From NCBI GenBank assembly GCA_000004695.1, contig CM000153.2:3648001-3712000 (forward strand): DNA of 64,000 nt, read 5' to 3'. Positions 1 through 64,000 of the stretch are shown in pieces. Both the position numbers and the translations under genes were made by a program. The stretch comes from Dictyostelium discoideum. Lineage: Eukaryota. Position 1 is the first letter of the stretch. Each line of letters begins with the position of its first letter. The notes below the pieces were generated by a model. The model made no database searches, was not told the origin of the DNA, and worked only from the letters and a program-made list of their open reading frames with translations.

Positions 1-7523
<7,523 letters not shown>

Positions 7524-7654
7524 AAAAAAAAATAAAAAATATAATGAAAATAAAATAAAAATAGAATGACAAAAAAAAAAAAAAAAAAAAAATTATTGAA
7601 ATAAAAAATAATTGTAAATGGTATTTTTCATTTTTTTAATTTTTTTTTTTTAAT

Positions 7655-8148: not shown

Positions 8149-8978
8149 ATGTCTGTTGATGCAAATAAAGTAAAATTCTTCTTTGGTAAAAACTGCACTG
8201 GTGAATCATTTGAATACAACAAAGGTGAAACTGTAAGATTCAACAATGGTGATAAATGGAATGATAAATTCATGTCATGTTTGGTTGGTTCAAATGTTAG
8301 ATGTAACATTTGGGAGCATAATGAAATTGGTAAGTATTTATAAATATTTTCTATTTTTATAAATTATAAATAATATTAATAGGTTTAATTTATTATTATT
8401 ATTTTAATTTTAAAATATAGATACTCCAACTCCAGGAAAATTCCAAGAATTGGCTCAAGGCAGTACAAACAATGATTTAACCTCAATAAATGGTCTTTCA
8501 AAGTTCCAAGTCTTACCAGGAGCTTTTCAATGGGCAGTTGATGTTAAAATTGTCAACAAAGTTAATTCAACTGCTGGTTCATATGAAATGACCATTACTC
8601 CATACCAAGTTGATAAGGTTGCTTGCAAAGATGGTGATGACTTTGTTCAATTGCCAATTCCAAAACTTACTCCACCAGATTCTGAAATTGTTAGCCATTT
8701 AACAGTTCGTCAAACACATACACCATATGACTATGTAAGTTTATTATTATTATTATTATGATTATTATTAAATATATAATTAATTTCTCTTTTATTAATT
8801 TTTAATTTTTATCTTTCTATAAATAAAAAAGGTTGTAAATGGAAGTGTTTACTTTAAATACTCCCCAACAACTGGCCAAGTTACAGTTATTAAAAAAGAT
8901 GAGACATTCCCAAAGAATATGACTGTTACACAAGATGATAATACATCTTTCATCTTTAACTTAAACTCTGAAAAATAA
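8149..8978 (+). CDS. cadA: Calcium-dependent cell adhesion molecule DdCAD-1 (gp24), with 3 exons: 8149..8329, 8421..8734 and 8832..8978 (213 aa).
   Basis: Exon 1 encodes [60 protein letters not shown]. The donor is GTAAGT at 8330 and the acceptor ATAG at 8417-8420. Exon 2 ends ...HTPYDY with GTAAGT at 8735. Exon 3 reads [10 protein letters not shown]...NLNSEK*. The recalled DdCAD-1 sequence matches: a beta/gamma-crystallin-like N-terminal domain plus an Ig-like C-terminal domain, total 213 aa. Confidence 0.85.
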
Positions 8979-9063
8979 AACAATATGTTTTTTTTTCTCT
9001 TTAAGAAAACTTTAAATAATAAAATTATGAATTTCAGAAATTATTTAGGTCTTATTTTTATTT

Positions 9064-9297
9064 TATTTTTTTTTTTATTTGTTTCGATATTGGCTTAATT
9101 TGTAAATAACTTCATGTACACCAACGATATGACAAATTAAAATTGGGTCATTGCGATGGTGTTAAGAGATGTTTTATAGGCTCAGGGTTTCTAATTAGAA
9201 AATAAATCAGAAGTCAATAAAATTTCTTCAACTGGATCTTGGTGAAACGAAAGTGGTCTAATTTAATTATTTTTATTTATTTTTATGGAAGCGGGAA

Positions 9298-9331
<34 letters not shown>

Positions 9332-10440
9332 ACCTCAACCAATTAGGCAGTGTCTGAGTTTTATTTAATTTTATTTTGGTAGTATTTAAAAATTCTTAAT
9401 TATTTATGTAATTAGTATTGAATGAACAATAATGAACTAAATGTTCTGGTACATAAGTTCTCATTAATTGTGAATTCCAAGAGTGACTAAATTTTTCTAG
9501 CTTTTTCATTATTTTCCAAGTGTAGTCTAAATGAGGGTCTTTATTTCCAATCTTCTTAAATGATCTATTACTTTTAAAACGAAAGTATGGCGGGTCTTGA
9601 CGGCTTCTGTTGTGCCGTACCGGGGTGTCATGTCGGCCGTTTGTGCCGTCGGATGGTTTTGAAAACTACCTCCCCAGATTCGATTATAGTATTATAATCC
9701 CTCATTTCGGAGTTTTTAATTGCGGTACTTATTGGTCTGGTTATACATGTCTGAGGAGATTTTTGCTTTAACCCATCAATATGAGCAGTGTTTATTACTT
9801 CCTACTCTTGATCTAGGTCCTCTATGTTTATTACAAGCCAACAGGATATCGAACCGTTGTCCTAGGGTGTGCGTCGGTATTTACCTATCAGTGCCCTTCA
9901 AAGCGGGAAATTTTTTTTTTTTTTGAATTGGATAACGCAATTATTGGTTGCTTCTCCTTGAGATGCTAGATCTCATTTATTTTAGTATTTTTACAGGGTC
10001 TCTAAAAGAGGGGTTAGTTTACTTTTTTTTTTTTTTTTTTTTGTTTCTAATTTTGAATTGTATTATTACTTTTGATTAAAACATCTTTTTTGTCCAAACT
10101 TTTTTCAAAAACTTTTTTTATTTTATCGTCTGGCGACAGTTTGGCGGGTCTTGAAGTTGATGGTGTGACGAATACCCAACCTCCACTCATACTATCGGTG
10201 AAACCTTAAGCCACTTTCGTGACCGACACTCGCTCTCATCTCTCGCGCCACTCACTCGCCATTCGTCTTTATATATATTTTTACTTTTATCGACTTACTT
10301 TGTGTGAGCGCGATACCCCCTGTCTCCTTCCCGTTACTTGAAGTGTCTCGCCAGTGTACCACACGTTTACTATTGCAGTGACTGACTAACCAACGGCTTG
10401 CACTATCAGGGCCAATAAGCGGGAAATATGAAGCCAAAAA
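9064..10440 (-). mobile_element. Tandem array of three related non-coding, GC-richer repeat modules immediately upstream (19-26 bp) of the tRNA-Tyr gene. Likely remnants of tRNA-targeting retroelements (TRE5-type modules or DGLT-A solo LTRs); family not assignable.
   Basis: Units at about 9076-9300, 9590-9910 and 10143-10433. Units 2 and 3 both begin TGGCGGGTCTTGA and end CTATCAG(G/T)GCC..AAGCGGGAAAT, but their interiors differ. Read on the minus strand, each unit starts ATTTCCCGCTT and is followed at its low-coordinate end by an A-run (seen as plus-strand T-runs at 9301-9328, 9911-9924 and 9064-9075). This resembles successive poly(A)-terminated insertions with 5' ends facing the tRNA. Only short ORFs are present. 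The strand assignment is tentative. Confidence 0.4.
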
Positions 10441-10458
10441 ATAATTTAATTTCATCAA

Positions 10459-10541
10459 CCGGCTTTGGCGCAATGGTAGCGCGATTGACTGTAGTAATTA
10501 AAGTGATCAATCGGTTGCTAGTTCGAATCTGGCAAGCCGGA
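10459..10541 (+). tRNA. tRNA-Tyr (anticodon GTA) carrying an 11-nt intron after position 37
   Basis: Cloverleaf traced by hand. Acceptor CCGGCTT pairs with AAGCCGG. D-stem GCGC/GCGC with loop AATGGTA. Anticodon stem ATTGA/TCAAT. The anticodon loop CTGTAG is interrupted by TAATTAAAGTG. T-stem GCTAG/CTGGC with loop TTCGAAT. A T6 Pol III terminator lies at 10543-10548. Confidence 0.7.
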
Positions 10542-10567: not shown

Positions 10568-10578
10568 GGTTCGATTCC
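10568..10578 (+). promoter_or_regulatory. External B-box (exB) about 27 bp downstream of tRNA-Tyr
   Basis: GGTTCGATTCC matches the B-box consensus GGTTCGANTCC. Extra downstream B boxes are a known feature of Dictyostelium tRNA genes and are implicated in TRE3 targeting. Confidence 0.45.
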
Positions 10579-10808
10579 TTGTAAAAAATGGTAGAATGAA
10601 AAAAGTCGAAACACACATGATCATGACTGTCACTTGCTGCTAAACCGTACCGCTATCAAGAGGATACAAGATACACGTGAAAAGTAATTCATCCTTTTCT
10701 ATCCTTAATCTCGGTCAATTTTAACCAATCTTTCGAAAAAAATCACCAATCCACCACGATCTACAGATCTAACTTACCAAATCGCCGATTCAAAGGAATC
10801 CCATCGAG

Positions 10809-11882
10809 ATGAATTCCTACGCAGACGCGGCTAAAATGGCCAACCCCTCCACCCATATGGACGAGGCATCGGAGAACTTCATTAAGGAATTCTCCACAAA
10901 AACAGCAGAGATAAAGGAAACTTACCCCAAACTATCAATAGGCCTCAAAGACATCTCCAAATACTGCGAGACCATATTGAACATGACTGCGCTCTCAACC
11001 TACGAGAAGAACAACGGATTCTACCCAATTACACTCGAATTCCCCAAAATGGATCTCAAGGGGTTAGAAGAAATGAGAAAAACACTCTCAAACTACGATA
11101 TCCCAATCGACAAGATATACATAGGCAAAGGAACTAGAAAAATGATCCACCTGATGATTAAAAACGAACAATCTCTCCTAAATATCATTAGAGATAGAAG
11201 CAAATTGGGAACCTTCATCACCTCCAGTAGAGACTTCCACGTCCTCACAGGAAGAGTAAGAATTCCCAGAGAAAAGGCAGGAATAGTGGACGCCCTCATC
11301 AAAACTGCCTTTGCAGAAGAAATACCCTATGCAATATACAATACTATATACTCCACCGACCACCTCATAGTATTCGGTCTAATAGAATGCAAAATAGGCG
11401 ATCAAATGAAATCTGGCCAACACATTACAGAAATCGCAAACTTTACCATCAGAACGGCCACCAAAACCTACTCCTCACAAAAGAAAAACAAGAAAGTAGA
11501 GACAAACAACACGGAGGAACCATTAGAAGATGAGATGACAGATCCTCCTAACACTCAAAACAGGATAGCAATCAAATCCTCTCAACCAAAACCACAACAA
11601 CAAACAAACAACTCAGCAAACAATCAGTCTGATAAACAATCAACACAAGAGAAAAAAGCTCAAGCAAAAAAGTCATCTCAACCTCTTCCCCCCAAAAACC
11701 CAGCAGAATTTCAATCTGTCAAACCCACCACAACCACTACCACAACATCCAACGCCATCCAAAAAGACAATGCCAACAAAACAAGCACTAACATCCATTC
11801 ATCCTCGGAAAACAGAGAGAAGACACTAAACATCCCTCCAACTATACACCGAATTTCAAAAACAAAACGACTACAACAATAA
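10809..11882 (+). CDS. TRE3 ORF1 protein (357 aa), basic with a Thr/Gln-rich C-terminus
   Basis: First long ORF of the element. Codon usage is GC-richer than host genes. It lies upstream of the RT-encoding ORF2. Confidence 0.65.
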   Translation: MNSYADAAKMANPSTHMDEASENFIKEFSTKTAEIKETYPKLSIGLKDISKYCETILNMTALSTYEKNNGFYPITLEFPKMDLKGLEEMRKTLSNYDIPIDKIYIGKGTRKMIHLMIKNEQSLLNIIRDRSKLGTFITSSRDFHVLTGRVRIPREKAGIVDALIKTAFAEEIPYAIYNTIYSTDHLIVFGLIECKIGDQMKSGQHITEIANFTIRTATKTYSSQKKNKKVETNNTEEPLEDEMTDPPNTQNRIAIKSSQPKPQQQTNNSANNQSDKQSTQEKKAQAKKSSQPLPPKNPAEFQSVKPTTTTTTTSNAIQKDNANKTSTNIHSSSENREKTLNIPPTIHRISKTKRLQQ

Positions 11883-11997
11883 GGCTAACATCAAAAATCT
11901 AATCTCCCTACTAGAGACAGAATTTAAAGACCAAGCCTTCGCAACCCTTTCAGCAATAAATGAATCTAAAAAAAGAGAAGAACAACTTAAACAAGAA

Positions 11998-14987
11998 TTG
12001 AACAACTATTGCGAAGAAACCTCACTCAAGTACATCTCCGCGAGAATCAAGAAAAGACACAATGATTTCACCATCAACGCAGTAAAAGATGCACAAGGTA
12101 GAACAATTAACAAACAGGAATTGATCGAAGAAGAATACGTAAAATATTACTCAAATCTTTATGACTACAAAGAAGATGACCCACTATCTCATTACGAAAT
12201 GTTGGAAAATTGGACAGTGACCAGGGACTCGACATGGGACAACCTTGAAAATGAATTCACCTCACAAGAAATCCTAGAAGTAATAAAACAACTGAACCCA
12301 CACAAATCTCCAGGTCCAGATGGAATTCCAAACTTATTCTACATAACACACAAAGAAAAACTAGCTCCAATACTGGCCTCAGCATTCAACGACACTCTAA
12401 GAAATCCTCATCTAATTAGCAAAAATTACAAAGAAGGCCTCATTATCACGATACCTAAAAAGGGAGACCCCGAACTAATCAAAAACAGAAGACCAATTAC
12501 ACTGGCTAACTGTATATATAAAATCCACTCAAAGCTAATAAACAATAGAATAATCCCAATACTAACGAAAGTGATCAACAACAATCAAAAAGGTTTCGTA
12601 CCAGGCAGATTCATTATAGATAATATCATATCAATGAACGAATTAATCAACTATTGTAATGATAAAAGAATTAACGGAATAATTACACTATATATTTCGA
12701 AAAAGCTTNNNNNNNNNNNNNNNNNNNNNNNNNNNNNNNNNNNNNNNNNNNNNNNNNNNNNNNNNNNNNNNNNNNNNNNNNNNNNNNNNNNNNNNNNNNN
12801 NNNNNNNNCTCATCTAATTAGCAAAAATACAAAGAAGGCCTCATTATCACGATACCTAAAAAGGGAGACCCCGAACTAATCAAAAACAGAAGACCAATTA
12901 CACTGGCTAACTGTATATATAAAATCCACTCAAAGCTAATAAACAATAGAATAATCCCAATACTAACGAAAGTGATCAACAACAATCAAAAAGGTTTCGT
13001 ACCAGGCAGATTCATTATAGATAATATCATATCAATGAACGAATTAATCAACTATTGTAATGATAAAAGAATTAACGGAATAATTACACTATATGATTTC
13101 GAAAAAGCTTTTGACTCGATCTCACACGGTTCAATACTTAGATCACTACAACACATCAACATTCCAACCAATATAATCAACCTGATAATGAATCTACTCA
13201 CCAAATCTGAAGCAAGAATTGAAATTAATGGTAGAACTACTATACCCTTTGAGATCAAAAGAGGAGTTAAACAAGGAGATCCACTATCACCCACACTGTT
13301 CGTCCTTGTAATAGAGGCTTTAGCTAGAAAAATTTTACAAGATGATCGAATTACTGGCCTTCCTCTAAACAACAGCAACCACAGAGAGAAATTCCAAAGC
13401 TTTGCAGACGACTCGGCTTCAATGGTCCCAGACTCTCAACAACTTGAATTAGTACTACAACACTTCAATTCATTTTGCAAAGCCACTTCCTCAAAACTAA
13501 ACATCGACAAATCTTCATCAATTCTTATAGGCAACCCAGACAATACCAACCAAAGAATTCCAATATCTACAAATCCAGAAAGATACTTGGGATACTTCTT
13601 CACAGGTAAAGGGATAACAAGAAAAATGCCAGAAATATTAAACACAATAAGATCATCCTTAGTACTATGGAAAACCACTGACTCAACAATAAAAACCAAA
13701 ACCAACATCCTCAAAGCATTCGCACTCTCTAAATTAACCTACTATTCATATGTAGAGAACTTTAAGGAAGAGGAATTAAACCAAATCAATAAATTAGTCG
13801 AATGGTTTTTATCGGCACCAAACAACAAAAATGCTAGTGGATTTCAAGTTATTAATTTAATGAGAACCAAAAGAGCAAGATACCCACTAAAAGTAGGGGG
13901 CTGGAACATTTGGAATATAGAATTGAGACAACTGGCGCAGAAACTTTGGATCATAAACCAGTTCATACTAGCACTAGAAACCAAACAAACAAACTCATCT
14001 CATCACAAAAGCTGGGAATATCAGATCCAAAAAAACAAATTCACATCCAGATACCTAAAAGAAAACTTAGACGAATGGAACAAAATAAGAATAAAAAAAG
14101 CAATCTTCAACAATAATCTCACATCCATAAAAAACGAAAATGGACAACCACTTTCACTGGCAGAATGGTATACCACAATTCAAGACCAAAATCCAACCAT
14201 CCCTAAAACTGAATTCCAATCATCTCTAAACTTAAGAGGCTACAGCTATAATCAACTCTTCAACAACATACTGAAGATAAAAGACCCTAAAACAAGAGAC
14301 ACAATGTTTAGATTCCATGCCAGATGTCTTCCAATAAACTACCTTCACAACAAACAATGCCCACTCTGCAAAGAAGATATGAGCAAAGACCCATACGGTC
14401 ACCTGTTCTTCTCATGCAAGAAAACAAAACAATTCATAAAAATAAATAAACTCAAAAATTTCATCTATATTACCACAGGCAAAGGTAAAAACTGGCACCA
14501 TACAAGAATTAGGCAAAATAACAATTTCATTAATAGAATAACTCCAAAATTATCACCGACATCCAAAAAAGATCAAGAAGTGAATGCAGATTACGCCAAC
14601 CACAGATCCCACAAAGAATACTTTGAATGGAACTATAAAGCAATAGACTATGATCTAACCAGATCATTCGCATATAGAAACCTAATGGCCCTTATCCTCC
14701 ACAACATTTGGATTTGGATTTGCAATCAAATATACAGTGAAGATCCTTTAACAGATGAATCACTATCATACAGCTCCCTTCTAAAGAAATGGCACAAATT
14801 GGCCACTCTAGAATACATCAAAAAAGCAAAAGATCTGAAAAACTTATCAGCAAAAGACCATAATAACTTCAAAGATCCTAAGATCCTTCTCACTTCAACG
14901 ATCAAGCTAAGAAAAACAACAGCTAATTACTATTGTATTCCAGAATCATCTCTCCCAAATATTATATCTTTTGATCAATTCATATGA
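11998..14987 (+). CDS. TRE3 ORF2 polyprotein (endonuclease/reverse transcriptase/Cys-rich C-terminal domain), interrupted by the 100-N gap and a flanking duplication
   Basis: ORF track pieces 11998..12879 and 12972..14987 share one reading frame logic. RT motifs and a CCHC-like motif are near the C-terminus. Sequence 12407..12708 is repeated at 12809..13110 with 2 small indels, flanking the N-run. Confidence 0.65.
12407..13110. other. Scaffold gap (100 N, 12709..12808) flanked by an approximately 300-bp near-identical direct duplication, a probable assembly artefact
   Basis: catctaattagcaaaaattacaaagaaggcctc...aattacactatat occurs on both sides of the N-run. The copies differ by 1-nt indels (aaaattacaaag vs aaaatacaaag; ctatatatttcg vs ctatatgatttcg). 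Confidence 0.6.
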
Positions 14988-15112
14988 TTAAAATAACCCT
15001 TCAGCTTAAATGATAAGCCTTTAAATAAATATTAAATAAAACTCGTATTAACACAGATGGACATATATCAATCTTGTTAATCCAATATTAAAAAAAAAAA
15101 AAAAAAAAAAAA

Positions 15113-15552: not shown

Positions 15553-15996
15553 AAAAAATAAGCCCAAAAACAAAAATAAAAAATAAAAAATAAAAAATAA
15601 AAATAAAAAAGTGAAAAAATAAAAAATAAAAAATTAATTTTATAATTTTATAATTTTATTATTTTATTATTTAATTTTATTATTTAATTTTATTATTTTA
15701 TTATTTATTATTTAATTATTTAATTATTTAATTATTTATAAAATTTTAAAAAATAAATAAACATCTATTGCTTAAGATGTAAATCTAGATCTTACAAATA
15801 GAATGTATTTTGGATCCATTTCACTATTTTATATTTTTTCTATTGTTTTTTAAAAGATTAAAGCAAGGAATTCTTAGTTTTAAAATTAAAAAAAAAAAAA
15901 AAAAAAAACGTATTGACGTTATTTTTTTTTTTTTTTTTCTAATCACTTTTTTTTTTTTTTTTTAATTTTTATTTACTTTTTTAATATTTATCAAAA

Positions 15997-17463
15997 ATGG
16001 AACTCATACTCTATAATAATAATAATAATAATAAAAATAAAAAAAAGAATTATAATGACAAATTATTTTTTAAAATTTGGAAAAATAAAATTATAAGGAA
16101 TGAAATAATTCATCATTTAAAAATTTATAATATCCATTCAATTAAATTAAATCCTTTTAATGGTAAAAAAGAATTTGAAGAATATAAATATAACAGTTAT
16201 CTTTTGTATTTAGATTTAATAGTATTTGAAAATGAAAATTTAGAAATTGGAACGATACCAAAGGATTCATGTATTAAAGAATTAACAATTAGACAATTTT
16301 TTAATTGTAAAAATGAATTAATAATAAAAGAGAATAGTTTACCCAAGTCGATAAAATCACTTGATATTAGTCGTTGTAATTTTAATCAAAACAATTTAAA
16401 TAATAAAATATTTGGTCAATCAATAACTCATCTTTATTTGGGTACTGGATTTAATAAAAGTCTTGGTGGCAATTGGTTACCTAGTAATTTACAACATTTA
16501 GAAATTCATAGCATGATGTTTAATCAAGATATTAAAATTGGACAATTACCAGAGTCACTTACAATTTTAAGGTTAAATCATTATTATGATGGTTTGATTG
16601 AAACTGGTTCAATTCCTCCCAAAGTTATAAATCTTCATTATAAATTTGATTCAAATTATAATAAGAGTTCATTTGATCAACATTGTTTTATTCCAAAGTA
16701 TATGACATCATTAGAATTTGATTATGAATTTAATCAACCAATCATTGTTGGTACCATTCCAAAGAATATAACATCAATTAAATTTGGTAATCAATTTAAT
16801 AGTGAAATTAAAGAGAATTCATTACCAAAATTAGTTTCTTCAATTACATTTGGTCATGGGTATAGTCAACCAATTAATAATATAAATATTTTACCACCAA
16901 ACCTAACAAAATTAGAATTTGGATATCATTTTGATCAACCAATTGATTCAAATAATTTTCCCTCCTCTATTACCTCTTTAAAATTTGGTGAAAATTTCAA
17001 TAGAGATCTAAATGAATCATTTTTTAAAAAACTTTATCATTTAAAGGTTTTAGAGGTTGGTTTGTATTTTAAAAAAATAATATCACCAAATTCATTACCT
17101 AATTCATTAAAACAATTAAGTTTGGGTGATAGATATAATCATAAATTAACAATTAATACCCTACCATCATCTTTAGAAATATTAAAATTGGGTAGATATT
17201 ATAATCATTCTATTGAAGCTGGTGTACTACCTCCAAATTTAAAATCATTATATCTTGATGGTAATAGTCATATTTTAGATCTAACTCCATCTGGTTGTTT
17301 ACCAAATAATCTACAATATATTTATTTTAAACATTCACCTCCAATTCTATGTCCAACTACAACTCCATCATCTTTAAAATCAATTATATTAACTTCAACT
17401 TTAGAATTAAATAAATTTAAAGAATTTATTGATAATCCCTTCTTTTTTAAATATTTAAAATAA
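15997..17463 (+). CDS. FNIP-repeat-containing protein (488 aa)
   Basis: Multiple approximately 22-aa repeats with F-N/G-x-x-F-N/D-Q-P-I motifs (FGNQFNSEI, FGYHFDQPI, FGENFNRDL). The N-terminus NNNNNNKNKKKNYNDKLFFKIWKNKIIRNEII is typical of the Dictyostelium FNIP family. Confidence 0.75.
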   Translation: MELILYNNNNNNKNKKKNYNDKLFFKIWKNKIIRNEIIHHLKIYNIHSIKLNPFNGKKEFEEYKYNSYLLYLDLIVFENENLEIGTIPKDSCIKELTIRQFFNCKNELIIKENSLPKSIKSLDISRCNFNQNNLNNKIFGQSITHLYLGTGFNKSLGGNWLPSNLQHLEIHSMMFNQDIKIGQLPESLTILRLNHYYDGLIETGSIPPKVINLHYKFDSNYNKSSFDQHCFIPKYMTSLEFDYEFNQPIIVGTIPKNITSIKFGNQFNSEIKENSLPKLVSSITFGHGYSQPINNINILPPNLTKLEFGYHFDQPIDSNNFPSSITSLKFGENFNRDLNESFFKKLYHLKVLEVGLYFKKIISPNSLPNSLKQLSLGDRYNHKLTINTLPSSLEILKLGRYYNHSIEAGVLPPNLKSLYLDGNSHILDLTPSGCLPNNLQYIYFKHSPPILCPTTTPSSLKSIILTSTLELNKFKEFIDNPFFFKYLK

Positions 17464-62356: not shown

Positions 62357-62446
62357 GCCCGTGTCGTATAGTGGTTATTATATCTGTCTTGTACTTAGTA
62401 CCAAAGCGATAACAGAGGGTCCTCAGTTCGATTCTGAGCTCGGGCA
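62357..62446 (+). tRNA. Intron-containing tRNA gene. The hand fold gives anticodon TGT (Thr) with a 17-nt intron after position 37. An external B-box-like GGTTCGAAGTC lies at 62477-62487.
   Basis: Acceptor GCCCGTG/CTCGGGC (one U-U mismatch at 6:67). D-loop AGTGGTTA. Anticodon stem TCTGT/ACAGA. Loop CTTGTA[intron CTTAGTACCAAAGCGAT]A. T-stem CTCAG/CTGAG with loop TTCGATT. Isotype is less certain than for the first tRNA. Confidence 0.55.
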
Positions 62447-62565
62447 CTTTTCCTCGCAGACAGAATTTCGGTCACAGGTTCGAAGTCTGTCTTCAAATAG
62501 TAAAACTATTAATTATTGTATATTCCCTTTAAAGGAACAATGATTAATCAAAGTTTATCCTTTAA

Positions 62566-64000
62566 ACGAATTAATCAACTATTGTAATGATAAAAGAATT
62601 AACGGAATAATTACACTATATGATTTCGAAAAAGCTTTTGACTCGATCTCACACGGTTCAATACTTAGATCACTACAACACATCAACATTCCAACCAATA
62701 TAATCAACCTGATAATGAATCTACTCACCAAATCTGAAGCAAGAATTGAAATTAATGGTAGAACTACTATACCCTTTGAGATCAAAAGAGGAGTTAAACA
62801 AGGAGATCCACTATCACCCACACTGTTCGTCCTTGTAATAGAGGCTTTAGCTAGAAAAATTTTACAAGATGATCGAATTACTGGCCTTCCTCTAAACAAC
62901 AGCAACCACAGAGAGAAATTCCAAAGCTTTGCAGACGACTCGGCTTCAATGGTCCCAGACTCTCAACAACTTGAATTAGTACTACAACACTTCAATTCAT
63001 TTTGCAAAGCCACTTCCTCAAAACTTAACATCGACAAATCTTCATCAATTCTTATAGGCAACCCAGACAATACCAACCAAAGAATTCCAATATCTACAAA
63101 TCCAGAAAGATACTTGGGATACTTCTTCACAGGTAAAGGGATAACAAGAAAAATGCCAGAAATATTAAACACAATAAGATCATCCTTAGTACTATGGAAA
63201 ACCACTGACTCAACAATAAAAACCAAAACCAACATCCTCAAAGCATTCGCACTNNNNNNNNNNNNNNNNNNNNNNNNNNNNNNNNNNNNNNNNNNNNNNN
63301 NNNNNNNNNNNNNNNNNNNNNNNNNNNNNNNNNNNNNNNNNNNNNNNNNNNNNCAAAGAAGATATGAGCAAAGACCCATACTTCTCATGCAAGAAAACAA
63401 AACAATTCATAAAAATAAATAAACTCAAAAATTTCATCTATATTACCACAGGCAAAGGTAAAAACTGGCACCATACAAGAATTAGGCAAAATAACAATTT
63501 CATTAATAGAATAACTCCAAAATTATCACCGACAGCCAAAAAAGATCAAGAAGTGAATGCAGATTACGCCAACCACAGATTCCACAAAGAATACTTTGAA
63601 TGGAACTATAAAGCAATAGACTATGATCTAACCAGATCATTCGCATATAGAAACCTAATGGCCCTTATCCTCCACAACATTTGGATTTGGATTTGCAATC
63701 AAATATACAGTGAAGATCCTTTAACAAATGAATCACTACCATACAGCTCCCTTCTAAAGAAATGGCACAAATTGGCCACTCTAGAATACATCAAAAAAGC
63801 AAAAGATCTGAAAAACTTATCAGCAAAAGACCATAATAATTTCAAAGATCCTAAGATCCTTCTCACCTCAACGACCAAGCTAAGAAAAACAACAGCTAAT
63901 TACTATTGTATTCCAGAATCATCTCTCCCAAATATTATATCTTTTGATCAATTCATATGATTAAAATAACCCTTCAGCTTAAATGATAAGCCTATAAATA
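62566..64000 (+). mobile_element. 5'-truncated TRE3-type retrotransposon copy (the 3' part of ORF2 onward), inserted about 108 bp downstream of the second tRNA in the same orientation. It runs off the window end and contains a 100-N gap at 63254..63353.
   Basis: 62566-64000 is at least 97% identical to 13040-15030 of the first element. Homology starts abruptly at AATTAATCAACTATTG. The 100-N gap replaces about 650 bp. A 12-bp deletion (ggtcacctgttc) lies relative to copy 1 near 63380. The poly(A) end is not in the window. Confidence 0.8.
62567..63960 (+). CDS. TRE3 ORF2 3' portion (the RT C-terminal and Cys-rich domain), gapped and partial
   Basis: ORF-track pieces 62715..63422 and 63364..63960 are collinear with 13191..14987. 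Confidence 0.6.

Follow-up and report, generated by a model that had tools for sequence, protein, structure and literature searches.

A tRNA-Tyr(GUA) gene of Dictyostelium discoideum is preceded, in the window analysed here (the whole 64-kb stretch of DNA), by an array that most probably resulted from two independent insertions by target-primed reverse transcription. The inserted sequences, here called E2 and E3, would be short, non-coding and non-autonomous elements of the TRE5 type, both composites, that entered head-first upstream of the tRNA gene at the same site. In this reconstruction, each consists of a GC-rich leader of ≈0.3 kb with an intact 5′ terminus, joined at CAAGACCCGCCAWACTKTCG to a TRE5 3′ end and a poly(A) tail. 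The first-pass annotation had described three co-oriented modules (units 1–3) with identical ends, different interiors and a homopolymer run after each. Its view of the modules as co-oriented, poly(A)-terminated insertions whose 5′ ends point to the tRNA gene is borne out, since both elements are of the TRE5 non-LTR type, with distal A13 and A28 tails; the number of insertions is reduced to two, and unit 1 matches no element. The array was found at 99.8% identity in the independent assembly GCA_054883475.1, and is thus not an assembly artefact. No further copies of 9001–10460 were found in the window by self-BLAST.

Target locus and anatomy of the elements

The target tRNA-Tyr(GUA) gene is located on the plus strand at 10459–10541 and has an 11-nt intron. 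It was identified with ARAGORN, which in bacterial mode wrongly labels it Thr-tgt, and with the Rfam tRNA model (57.8 bits); the anticodon arm was inspected manually. The insertion site corresponds to the spacer between cadA and the tRNA gene. Downstream of the tRNA gene, at 10568–10578 on the plus strand, lies the external B box, GGTTCGATTCC, the only strict match to GGTTCGANNCC in the 64-kb window.

E3, which corresponds to unit 3, runs on the minus strand from 10416 to 9925 and is followed by A13. Its leader (10134–10416; 283 nt, 48% GC) starts with ATTGGCCCTGATAG, ends at the boundary CAAGACCCGCCAAACTGTCG, and is 86% identical to positions 15859–16129 of L002, another D. discoideum locus. 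The leader is followed by the last 91 nt of a TRE5-A B-module (10043–10133, minus strand), with 90–96% identity to the B-module in locus L009 and further matches in L001 and L002. Next comes an internal A20 run at 10023–10042, which is the junction between the B- and C-modules rather than a poly(A) tail; TRE5-A copies in L001, L002 and L009 have the same run at this junction. Unit 3 therefore extends to 9925, and the true poly(A) tail is the A13 at 9912–9924. The C-module itself (9925–10022, minus strand) is of the TRE5-A type, with 94% identity to the TRE5-A.1 C-module in L001 compared to 71% for a TRE5-C-type C-module. Its 3′ hairpins are kept, and its fold has a z-score of −2.56.

E2, corresponding to unit 2, runs on the minus strand from 9900 to 9329 and is followed by A28. 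The leader (9581–9900; ≈320 nt, 45% GC) has the 5′ end TGAAGGGCACTGATAG and the 3′ boundary CAAGACCCGCCATACTTTCG, with a TTTT on its 3′ side, and is 89% identical to L002 15607–15865. A B-box-like sequence, GGTTCGATATCC, had been noted in this unit at 9850–9861; it is indeed present, but at 9855→9844, and exceeds the GGTTCGANNCC consensus by one base. The tail of E2 (9329–9580, minus strand) comprises a remnant of the ORF2 C-terminus of ≈60 codons and a 3′UTR, both of a TRE5-B-group lineage: the remnant peptide has 62% identity to D. discoideum P0001, and the DNA is 72–83% identical to copies in L001, L003, L007 and L012. The poly(A) tail (A28) occupies 9301–9328 on the minus strand. Neither element has ORF1 and ORF2 with the APE, RT and zinc finger regions of an autonomous element. 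The coding remnants are limited to the ≈60 ORF2 codons in E2 and the start of ORF1 in E3, and E2 and E3 are thus non-autonomous derivatives.

Unit 1 (9064–9288) is best considered as original intergenic sequence together with the 3′ flank of the neighbouring gene upstream (gene end at 8977). It has a GC content of 28%, and no match to it was found either in 213 kb of TRE5-rich loci or in the rest of the window. The adjoining T11 run (9066–9076) belongs to an ordinary class: A or T runs of at least 10 nt occur 143 times in the window, or ≈2.2 per kb. The absence of a match to any element and the ordinary nature of this run are the reasons for reading unit 1 as flank. Of the homopolymers proposed to follow each module, then, the T20 at 10023–10042 is internal to unit 3 and the T11 beside unit 1 is unremarkable.

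The GC-rich leaders and their origin

The interiors of the two leaders do not align with each other, as the first-pass annotation had observed. What they share lies at the ends. The sequence GGCGGGTCTTGA occurs twice, at 9589 and 10143, where 0.01 occurrences would be expected, and extends to a 21-nt match with 90% identity (9580–9600 versus 10134–10154). At the other end, units 2 and 3 have a few bases in common (GGSC.CTGATAG) next to an 11-mer that is present in three places in the array. The claim of identical ends thus stands for the 11-mer, but the second end is common to units 2 and 3 only, unit 1 having the 11-mer alone.

A search of ten TRE5-containing loci (213 kb, a sample biased to TRE5 loci) yielded one more leader copy, that in L002, and neither a full-length element with a leader nor a stand-alone leader. 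In L002, the two leader bodies abut (15607–15865 and 15859–16129); after them come the last 220 nt of TRE5-A ORF2, the B- and C-modules and poly(A), the whole forming a composite with its own target-site duplication (TSD). The leader is thus known in three forms: body 2, body 3 and both together. Its 3′ boundary (CAAGACCCGCCAWACTKTCG) is identical in the three composites, and the TRE5 partner differs in each, being the TRE5-B-group ORF2 C-terminus in E2, position −91 of the B-module in E3 and position −220 of TRE5-A ORF2 in L002. All three composites therefore have the layout of a template-switch product, with a fixed leader 3′ end on variable LINE positions and with one TSD and one poly(A) tail. 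The suggestion that retroelement parts had been recombined in a modular fashion agrees with these data: the tails come from two TRE5 lineages, and unit 3 contains both B- and C-modules.

We considered the TRE5-A A-module as a source of the leader, but those in L001, L009 and L006 are AT-rich, without significant similarity to either leader. The proposed alignment to TRE5-A modules thus succeeds for the B- and C-modules of unit 3 and fails for the cores. TRE5-C was rejected as well; the TRE5-C-type copy in L009 consists of an ORF2 end, an A-run and a divergent C-module. Comparison with the 5′UTRs of TRE5-A, the TRE5-B-like element in L006 and TRE3 gave nothing above shuffled controls. Searches of Rfam at permissive E-values, with the window region and the contiguous L002 leader, returned the tRNA as the sole match, and neither six-frame translation nor searches of Pfam with the longest core ORFs on both strands gave any signal. 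The leader reading frames differ between the window and L002 and are not conserved. Folding of the two cores gave z-scores of −0.9 and −0.05, with no structured-RNA signal, and exact-match scans of metagenomes with leader 21-mers gave no matches. The GT...AG-like ends of body 2 and a "CCA" at the leader 3′ end were set aside as probable coincidences.

We suggest that template switching by the reverse transcriptase, or else modular recombination, produced the composites, in an event of the kind that duplicated the TRE5-A B-module. The leader would then serve as a putative 5′ promoter or UTR module in place of the A-module, and the elements would have been mobilised in trans by a TRE5 ORF2 protein recognising the 3′ tail. 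In published work, an unrelated promoter could stand in for the TRE5-A 5′UTR, the hairpin of the C-module proved essential, and elements lacking ORF2 were mobilised in trans (PMC3159450).

That three different composites share one fixed leader boundary would be explained by the capture of a separate RNA no less well than by a 5′UTR module. In such a scenario, the architecture is the same, but the leader is an independent RNA of cellular origin or from another element, possibly of the Pol III type, onto whose 3′ end the TRE5 reverse transcriptase repeatedly switched template. The constant boundary with three different partners, the intact leader 5′ end common to E2 and E3, and the lack of relationship to the TRE5-A, TRE5-B-like and TRE3 5′UTRs all argue for capture, as do the B-box-like GGTTCGAT(A/T)TCC, conserved between the window and L002, and the TTTT after the E2 leader. 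However, that T-run is missing in E3 and L002, the B-box-like motif is one base too long, and an A box was not found. The leader belongs to no Rfam family, its folding stability is unremarkable, and no stand-alone copy was seen in the TRE5-biased sample. Three leader forms would also be odd for a single cellular RNA. Overall, we regard the capture of an independent RNA as a credible but rather unlikely origin.

A more specific proposal, which we put forward as speculative, is that the leader is a discrete RNA or promoter module, with the 5′ end GGSCMCTGATAG, the 3′ end CAAGACCCGCCAWACTKTCG[CC] and a conserved B-box-like motif, repeatedly fused by the reverse transcriptases of at least two TRE5 lineages to their own 3′ tails. 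It could then have been the seed of a SINE- or SVA-like composite family that uses the TRE5-A or TRE5-B machinery.

Target-site duplications and order of insertion

The 11-mer AAGCGGGAAAT is present in three exact copies in the 64-kb window, all on the plus strand, where the chance expectation is 0.58 even with one mismatch allowed. Each copy abuts the 5′ end of an element, directly follows a poly(A) tail, or both. Copy 1 (10417–10427) is proximal to the tRNA gene and separated from its +1 position by a 31-nt spacer (10428–10458). The distal copy 3 (9289–9299) is the same as copy 1 over 13 nt (9289–9301 versus 10417–10429). Copy 2, in the middle (9901–9911), was presumably made by the E3 insertion; when extended to 13 nt, it departs from the outer copies at position 12, the base at which the E3 poly(A) starts. 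The minus-strand form, ATTTCCCGCTT, had been taken for the start of each module. It is best read as a TSD, regenerated by re-integration at the same position, a reading based on the internal logic of the array and on analogy with other loci. Three copies of the TSD imply two insertions, and the search for TSDs proposed in the first-pass annotation finds the 11-mer as a direct repeat around both elements.

TRE5 elements are flanked by direct repeats, and here a repeat of 10–13 nt is found in three copies around two elements. With the 11-mer as TSD, the 5′ end of E3 (10416) is 42 nt from the tRNA +1 position (10459), within the reported range of TRE5 integration distances of 34–95 nt upstream of the tRNA gene (PMC5006619, Table 1). 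The preferred distance is 47 ± 3 nt (PMC5391098); 42 nt is slightly short of this 44–50 nt interval. Both elements are on the minus strand, with their poly(A) tails distal to the tRNA gene, and the same orientation of the 5′ end toward the tRNA was observed in L001, L005, L006 and L009. Re-insertion at precisely one position has been reported, along with TSD formation and additional nucleotides at the 5′ end (PMC5391098).

The same TSD pattern is seen in three other arrays. In L009, TTGATCGTTATA is located beside a tRNA-Lys gene and GATCGTTATATT follows each of three poly(A) tails; in L001, TTTCTAAT recurs; and the L002 composite is flanked by CAATTTTTTATTTTT. Re-insertion at the same site with a TSD is an ordinary outcome for the TRE5 family, and the array is of a known kind of tRNA-targeted array.

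The nested duplications suggest the order of events. E2 would have inserted first, duplicating a target of 12–13 nt, (A)TATTTCCCGCTT. E3 would later have entered the copy nearest the tRNA gene, duplicating 10–11 nt of target and leaving three copies of ATTTCCCGCTT around two elements, with original flank beyond the distal copy. The predicted empty allele reads, on the plus strand, ...TTTATTTATTTTTATGG AAGCGGGAAAT ATGAAGCCAAAAAATAATTTAATTTCATCAAC-tRNA, with an expected pre-insertion junction of ...TTTATGG-AAGCGGGAAAT-ATGAAGCC... An intermediate allele with E2 alone is also predicted. Look-ups of an empty or single-insertion allele with two neighbouring single-exon proteins gave one other, near-identical assembly only.

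We consider it quite improbable that the array instead reflects three poly(A)-terminated insertions, each from an RNA with ATTTCCCGCTT as its element-borne 5′ terminus and with unit 1 as a third subfamily. The three exact copies of the 11-mer, the bases that units 2 and 3 share beyond it and the A-run after unit 1 on the minus strand would all be accounted for in this way. However, past the 11-mer, unit 1 resembles neither the other units nor any element in the TRE5-rich loci, and its A11 is of the common run class. An element-borne 11-mer would leave every insertion without a TSD and place the proximal element 31 nt from the tRNA gene, outside the TRE5 ranges (PMC5006619). It would also be at odds with the locus-specific TSDs that recur after each poly(A) tail in the three other arrays. 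Finally, the 11-mer is absent from all other sampled loci, including the L002 leader copy, although that copy, the only other one, is 5′-truncated and gives no direct view of the bases before the leader 5′ end.

The LTR-like character attributed to the cores fares worst: that a Ty3/gypsy element which targets tRNA genes, either DGLT-A (H3R) or Skipper-2, left them as solo LTRs in between TRE5 fragments is very improbable in spite of their size (≈0.28–0.32 kb), their site upstream of a tRNA gene, the plus strand start TGG... and a match at 10131–10138 to the first 8 nt of the DGLT-A primer binding site (PBS), TGGCGACA (PBS from PMC5006619), since neither strand has TG...CA ends, no short TSD surrounds a core alone, and the cores run straight into TRE5 tails and poly(A), with the TSD enclosing core and tail as one unit. 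The PBS 8-mer is on the wrong side, straddling the junction between leader and B-module, and a search that allowed 3 mismatches did not find the full 17-nt PBS. DGLT-A inserts on average 15 nt (range 13–33 nt) upstream of tRNA genes (PMC5006619), compared to 42 nt here; only the 31 nt obtained by counting the 11-mer would reach the edge of this range. A DGLT-A-like LTR in L002, 16 bp upstream of a tRNA-Lys gene (394 bp, 12% GC, TGTAAC...TTACA, PBS TGGCGACATC), is unlike the cores, in a comparison made with this LTR, from another strain, in place of the AX4 265-bp DGLT-A/H3R consensus.

Implications

With two TRE5-type composites as the preferred reading, the locus would be a clean natural record of precise TRE5 site re-use: two events, years apart, within the same 13 nt and 32–44 nt upstream of one tRNA gene, their order given by nested TSDs. 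The 3′ tails of two TRE5 lineages are joined here, always at the same boundary, to a shared GC-rich leader that matched no Rfam or Pfam family. If the leader is an independent promoter or RNA, the array would be a natural counterpart of the experiment in which a heterologous 5′ region and the C-module suffice for mobilisation, and would point to a composite non-autonomous family in D. discoideum; we know of no such family described in this genome. If the leader is instead the 5′UTR of a TRE5-B-group lineage, the matter becomes one of routine annotation.

Comparison with known systems

TRE5-A (DRE) and its non-autonomous derivative TRE5-A.2 are tRNA-gene-targeted non-LTR retrotransposons of D. 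discoideum. Like TRE5-A, the elements sit upstream of a tRNA gene at a distance of ≈45 nt, point their 5′ end at it and have both a TSD and a poly(A) tail, and E3 has the B-module remnant, the A-run between B- and C-modules and a hairpin-bearing C-module 94% identical to that of TRE5-A.1. Unlike TRE5-A, E3 is only ≈0.5 kb long and lacks the A-module, ORF1 and ORF2, and its 5′ part is an unrelated leader (leaders 45–48% GC). The TRE5-A family is known to undergo modular rearrangement and to be mobilised in trans (PMC3159450).

E2 resembles the TRE5-B-group copies in L001, L003, L005 and L007. Its 3′ 250 nt encode the last ≈60 ORF2 residues (62% amino acid identity), its short 3′UTR is of the same type and ends in ...GAGGTCAT-poly(A), and the integration position and orientation are the same. 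Homology to TRE5 3′UTRs is thus present in both elements, in the C-module of E3 and in the 3′ end of E2. Unlike in the TRE5-B group, the 3′ hairpin of E2 is degraded, the DNA identity is only 72–83%, and the GC-rich leader takes the place of all sequence 5′ to the ORF2 end; the sampled copies of the group are all 5′-truncated.

DGLT-A solo LTRs (H3R) are likewise a few hundred bp long and located upstream of tRNA genes. The elements described here differ from them in the distance to the tRNA gene, in the lack of LTR termini and of an LTR-type TSD, and in having cores continuous with TRE5 tails and without similarity to the DGLT-A-like LTR in L002.

U6–L1 chimeric retrocopies arise by reverse-transcriptase template switching onto captured RNA. 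The Dictyostelium composites, of which three were seen, are built on TRE5 rather than L1, unlike those chimeras and SVA. As in U6–L1 chimeras and SVA, however, a foreign 5′ segment is joined at a fixed 3′ boundary to variably shortened LINE 3′ ends, with one poly(A) tail and one TSD around the whole composite.

Locus and repeats

The array is bordered by a tRNA gene (10459-10541) and by a three-exon gene (8149-8977) that we take to be cadA/DdCAD-1; its 213-aa product carries the Pfam domains Crystall_3 and Membrane_bind. The GC content of the window is 25%, and its proteins match D. discoideum entries. The 11-mer AAGCGGGAAAT (plus strand) occurs exactly three times in the 64-kb window, at 9289, 9901 and 10417, always inside the array, while GGCGGGTCTTGA occurs twice, as part of a longer 21-nt motif. 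The repeat is real and far above chance expectation. No alignment was obtained between the two GC-rich interiors, in which GC reaches 45% and 48%, well above the window's 25%. The first-pass annotation had described three co-oriented modules with identical ends, each followed by a homopolymer. This observation is confirmed in part. The repeat itself was reproduced in an independent assembly, GCA_054883475.1, in which the array is present and its region is 99.8% identical, but the unit boundaries and the roles of the homopolymers need to be revised.

The tRNA gene scored 57.8 bits with the Rfam tRNA model and was labelled Thr(tgt) by ARAGORN in bacterial mode. This label is wrong, because the anticodon arm, read by hand, is ATTGA-CUGUAG^[TAATTAAAGTG]^A-TCAAT; this identifies a tRNA-Tyr(GUA) gene interrupted after position 37 by an 11-nt intron. 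An intron is also present in the second tRNA gene of the window (62357-62447), whose label may be similarly wrong. An external B box, GGTTCGATTCC, is found 3' of the first tRNA (10568-10578), followed downstream by a TRE3-type non-LTR element (10596-15000; ORF1 10809-11882, ORF2 to 14987). A second, 5'-truncated TRE3-type copy (62540-64000) lies downstream of the second tRNA. Both are broken by a 100-N assembly gap (12709-12808 and 63254-63353), and the gapless assembly at comparison locus L004 is ≈400 bp longer in these regions.

Two insertions at a probable shared target site

Read on the minus strand outward from the tRNA, the array consists of a 31-nt spacer, ATTTCCCGCTT, the proximal insertion E3 with A13, (A)TTTCCCGCTT, the distal insertion E2 with A28, and T-ATTTCCCGCTT, followed by unrelated AT-rich DNA. 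The outer copies of the 11-mer agree over 13 nt, while the middle copy deviates at position 12, where the E3 poly(A) starts. The explanation that we consider likely, taken as a whole, is that the 11-mer is a target-site duplication (TSD), the layout being that of two successive target-primed reverse transcription events at the same staggered cut. Since only the middle copy diverges, E2, whose TSD measures 12-13 nt, would have been inserted before E3, whose TSD measures 10-11 nt; the nesting of the TSDs gives the order.

Counting the 11-mer as target DNA places the start of E3 42 nt from the tRNA +1, inside the published 34-95 nt range of TRE5-A, -B and -C insertions (PMC5006619), whereas counting it as element gives 31 nt, outside this range. 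Most TRE5-A integrations fall at 47±3 nt, and independent events often hit exactly the same nucleotide; TSDs are formed and extra 5' nucleotides added (PMC5391098). The sequence AAGCGGGAAAT was absent from all other D. discoideum loci compared. Three other arrays carry the same recurring-target signature. In L009 (7698-11950), at least four TRE5 insertions lie upstream of tRNA-Lys; the target TTGATCGTTATA beside the tRNA returns as GATCGTTATATT behind three successive poly(A) tails, and (TT)GATCGTTATA(TT) is regenerated behind every poly(A). In L001, TTTCTAAT recurs as the targets do in L009, and CAATTTTTTATTTTT stands on either side of a composite element in L002. Also present in the L009 array are a mini-element of B-module and C-module and a TRE5-C-type fragment, which consists of an ORF2 end, an A-run and a divergent C-module.

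The 11-mer, previously taken as the start of each module, is best read as target DNA, as argued by the pattern of outer and middle copies, the 42-nt distance and the likeness to the three other arrays. The proposal of poly(A)-terminated, tRNA-targeted insertions holds, given the A13 and A28 tails and the TRE5 orientation and position, and the suggested search for flanking TSDs found them around both composites. The insertions number two rather than three. Unit 1 (9064-9288) matched no element, either elsewhere in the window or among the TRE5-rich loci, which total 213 kb. It has 28% GC and lies directly 3' of the neighbouring gene, and its T11 run is unremarkable, the window holding 143 runs of this kind. 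Unit 1 is best read as original flank.

Anatomy of E2 and E3

Related loci were reached via a short ORF in E2, and 12 D. discoideum loci were compared with the region. The E2 tail (9329-9580, minus strand) comprises the last ≈60 codons of ORF2 and the 3'UTR of a TRE5-B-group lineage, followed by A28. Its peptide is 62% identical, and its DNA 72-83% identical to the copies in L001, L003, L007 and L012. The name TRE5-B is ambiguous for this tail, as D. discoideum strains between them harbour at least three TRE5-B-like lineages. An apparently full-length TRE5 of ≈5.97 kb in L006 (6552-12520; strain GCA_054859355.1) has an AT-rich 5'UTR resembling A- and B-modules and a reverse transcriptase that shares 57% identity with the L003-type lineage and 39% with TRE5-A.

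In E3, the last 91 nt of a TRE5-A B-module (10043-10133; 90-96% identical to L009) are followed by the plus-strand T20 run (10023-10042), which corresponds to the A-run found between B- and C-module in all TRE5-A copies examined (L001, L002 and L009). The C-module (9925-10022) is 94% identical to that of the full-length TRE5-A.1 of L001, versus only 71% to a TRE5-C-type C-module. The hairpins that are essential for retrotransposition (PMC3159450) can still be formed by its 3' 54 nt (z-score -2.56). The element therefore extends from 10416 to 9925, and the T20 run, formerly read as a tail, is internal; the true tail is the A13 at 9912-9924.

GC-rich leaders

The 5' part of each element is a GC-rich leader (E3, 10134-10416; E2, 9581-9900). 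The two share a homologous 5' terminus, GGSC.CTGATAG, which starts within 1-2 nt of the first base of each element, and end at the same 3' boundary, CAAGACCCGCCAWACTKTCG. One further copy was found, in L002, where a segment 89% identical to the E2 leader body (15607-15865) abuts, at a common AAGCCGT, one 86% identical to the E3 body (15859-16129). In these alignments, the differing interiors of the window leaders are two consecutive segments of one ≈0.55 kb sequence. The L002 composite continues with the last 220 nt of TRE5-A ORF2 (97% identical to L001), an A-run, a B-module, an A-run, a C-module and poly(A), and a TSD of its own encloses the entire composite. Across the three composites, one and the same leader boundary is joined to three different TRE5 positions: the B-group ORF2 end, B-module position -91 and TRE5-A ORF2 position -220.

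Body 2 (9600-9884, minus strand), present in E2 and missing from E3, begins with GTAAAT right behind the common CTGATAG and ends with ...ACAACAG ahead of AAGCCGT. These GT...AG-like ends are probably coincidental, since its size (≈290 nt) and GC content (45%) are unlike those of Dictyostelium introns. The L002 copy of body 3 contains a perfect palindrome, GGCCCAGAGGC-TGG-TGCCTCTGGGCC (15924-15953); the window copy is unrelated in sequence at this point.

Origin of the composites

Both composites are TSD-flanked, poly(A)-tailed insertions in TRE5 orientation and position, with TRE5 tails of two lineages. They may have been made by template switching of the reverse transcriptase or by modular recombination, both demonstrable in the TRE5 family from a TRE5-A B-module duplication, an A/B/C mini-element in L001 and a B-module-ORF2 fusion protein (P0012). 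The modular recombination of retroelement parts proposed earlier is borne out by the two tail lineages and by the B- and C-module pieces in E3, and the first interpretation is, overall, partly supported. The composites would be mobilised in trans via their 3' tails, with the leader supplying the transcription start. This is plausible because in TRE5-A an unrelated promoter can stand in for the 5'UTR, the C-module is indispensable, and elements lacking ORF2 are mobile in trans (PMC3159450).

We lean somewhat towards the leader being a 5'UTR module, perhaps the authentic 5'UTR of a TRE5-B-group lineage. The less likely alternative is that it was transcribed independently, as an RNA whose 3' end was captured. 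All sampled copies of the TRE5-B-group lineage of the E2 tail are 5'-truncated.

Other identities for the leaders were rejected. The leaders are not A-modules, which in L001 and L009 consist of AT-rich units in tandem. Local alignment scores with TRE5-A, TRE5-B-like and TRE3 5'UTRs did not exceed those of shuffled controls, no Rfam family matched, folding was not unusually stable, and the leaders are not coding sequence. The analogy to LTRs was likewise set aside. The leaders are unrelated to the DGLT-A-like LTR recovered in L002 (394 bp, 12% GC, TGTAAC...TTACA, 16 bp upstream of tRNA-Lys), and the 17-nt DGLT-A primer binding site (PBS) was not found in the window. Its first 8 nt, TGGCGACA, do occur at 10131-10138 (plus strand), probably by coincidence. 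The site spans the leader/B-module junction, on the opposite side from the expected place of a PBS, and the 3' end of the leader is therefore ...GUCGCCA-3' in the RNA sense. For the DGLT-A PBS, a complementary primer has yet to be identified, as noted in PMC5006619.

Comparison with known systems

The L002 LTR pair (7119-7545 and 10012-10405), with a PBS-like TGGCGACATC 3 nt inside, is an internally deleted DGLT-A-like element of strain GCA_054859385.1; its 394-bp LTR exceeds the 265 bp given for DGLT-A in AX4. The locus in the window, with TRE5-type insertions, a tRNA and a TRE3-type element, fits the classic D. discoideum layout of TRE5 upstream and TRE3 downstream of tRNA genes (PMC5006619, PMC3159450). 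In itself the array is a textbook case of piled-up TRE5 insertions, and any novelty may be confined to the GC-rich leader and the fixed boundary at which it is fused.
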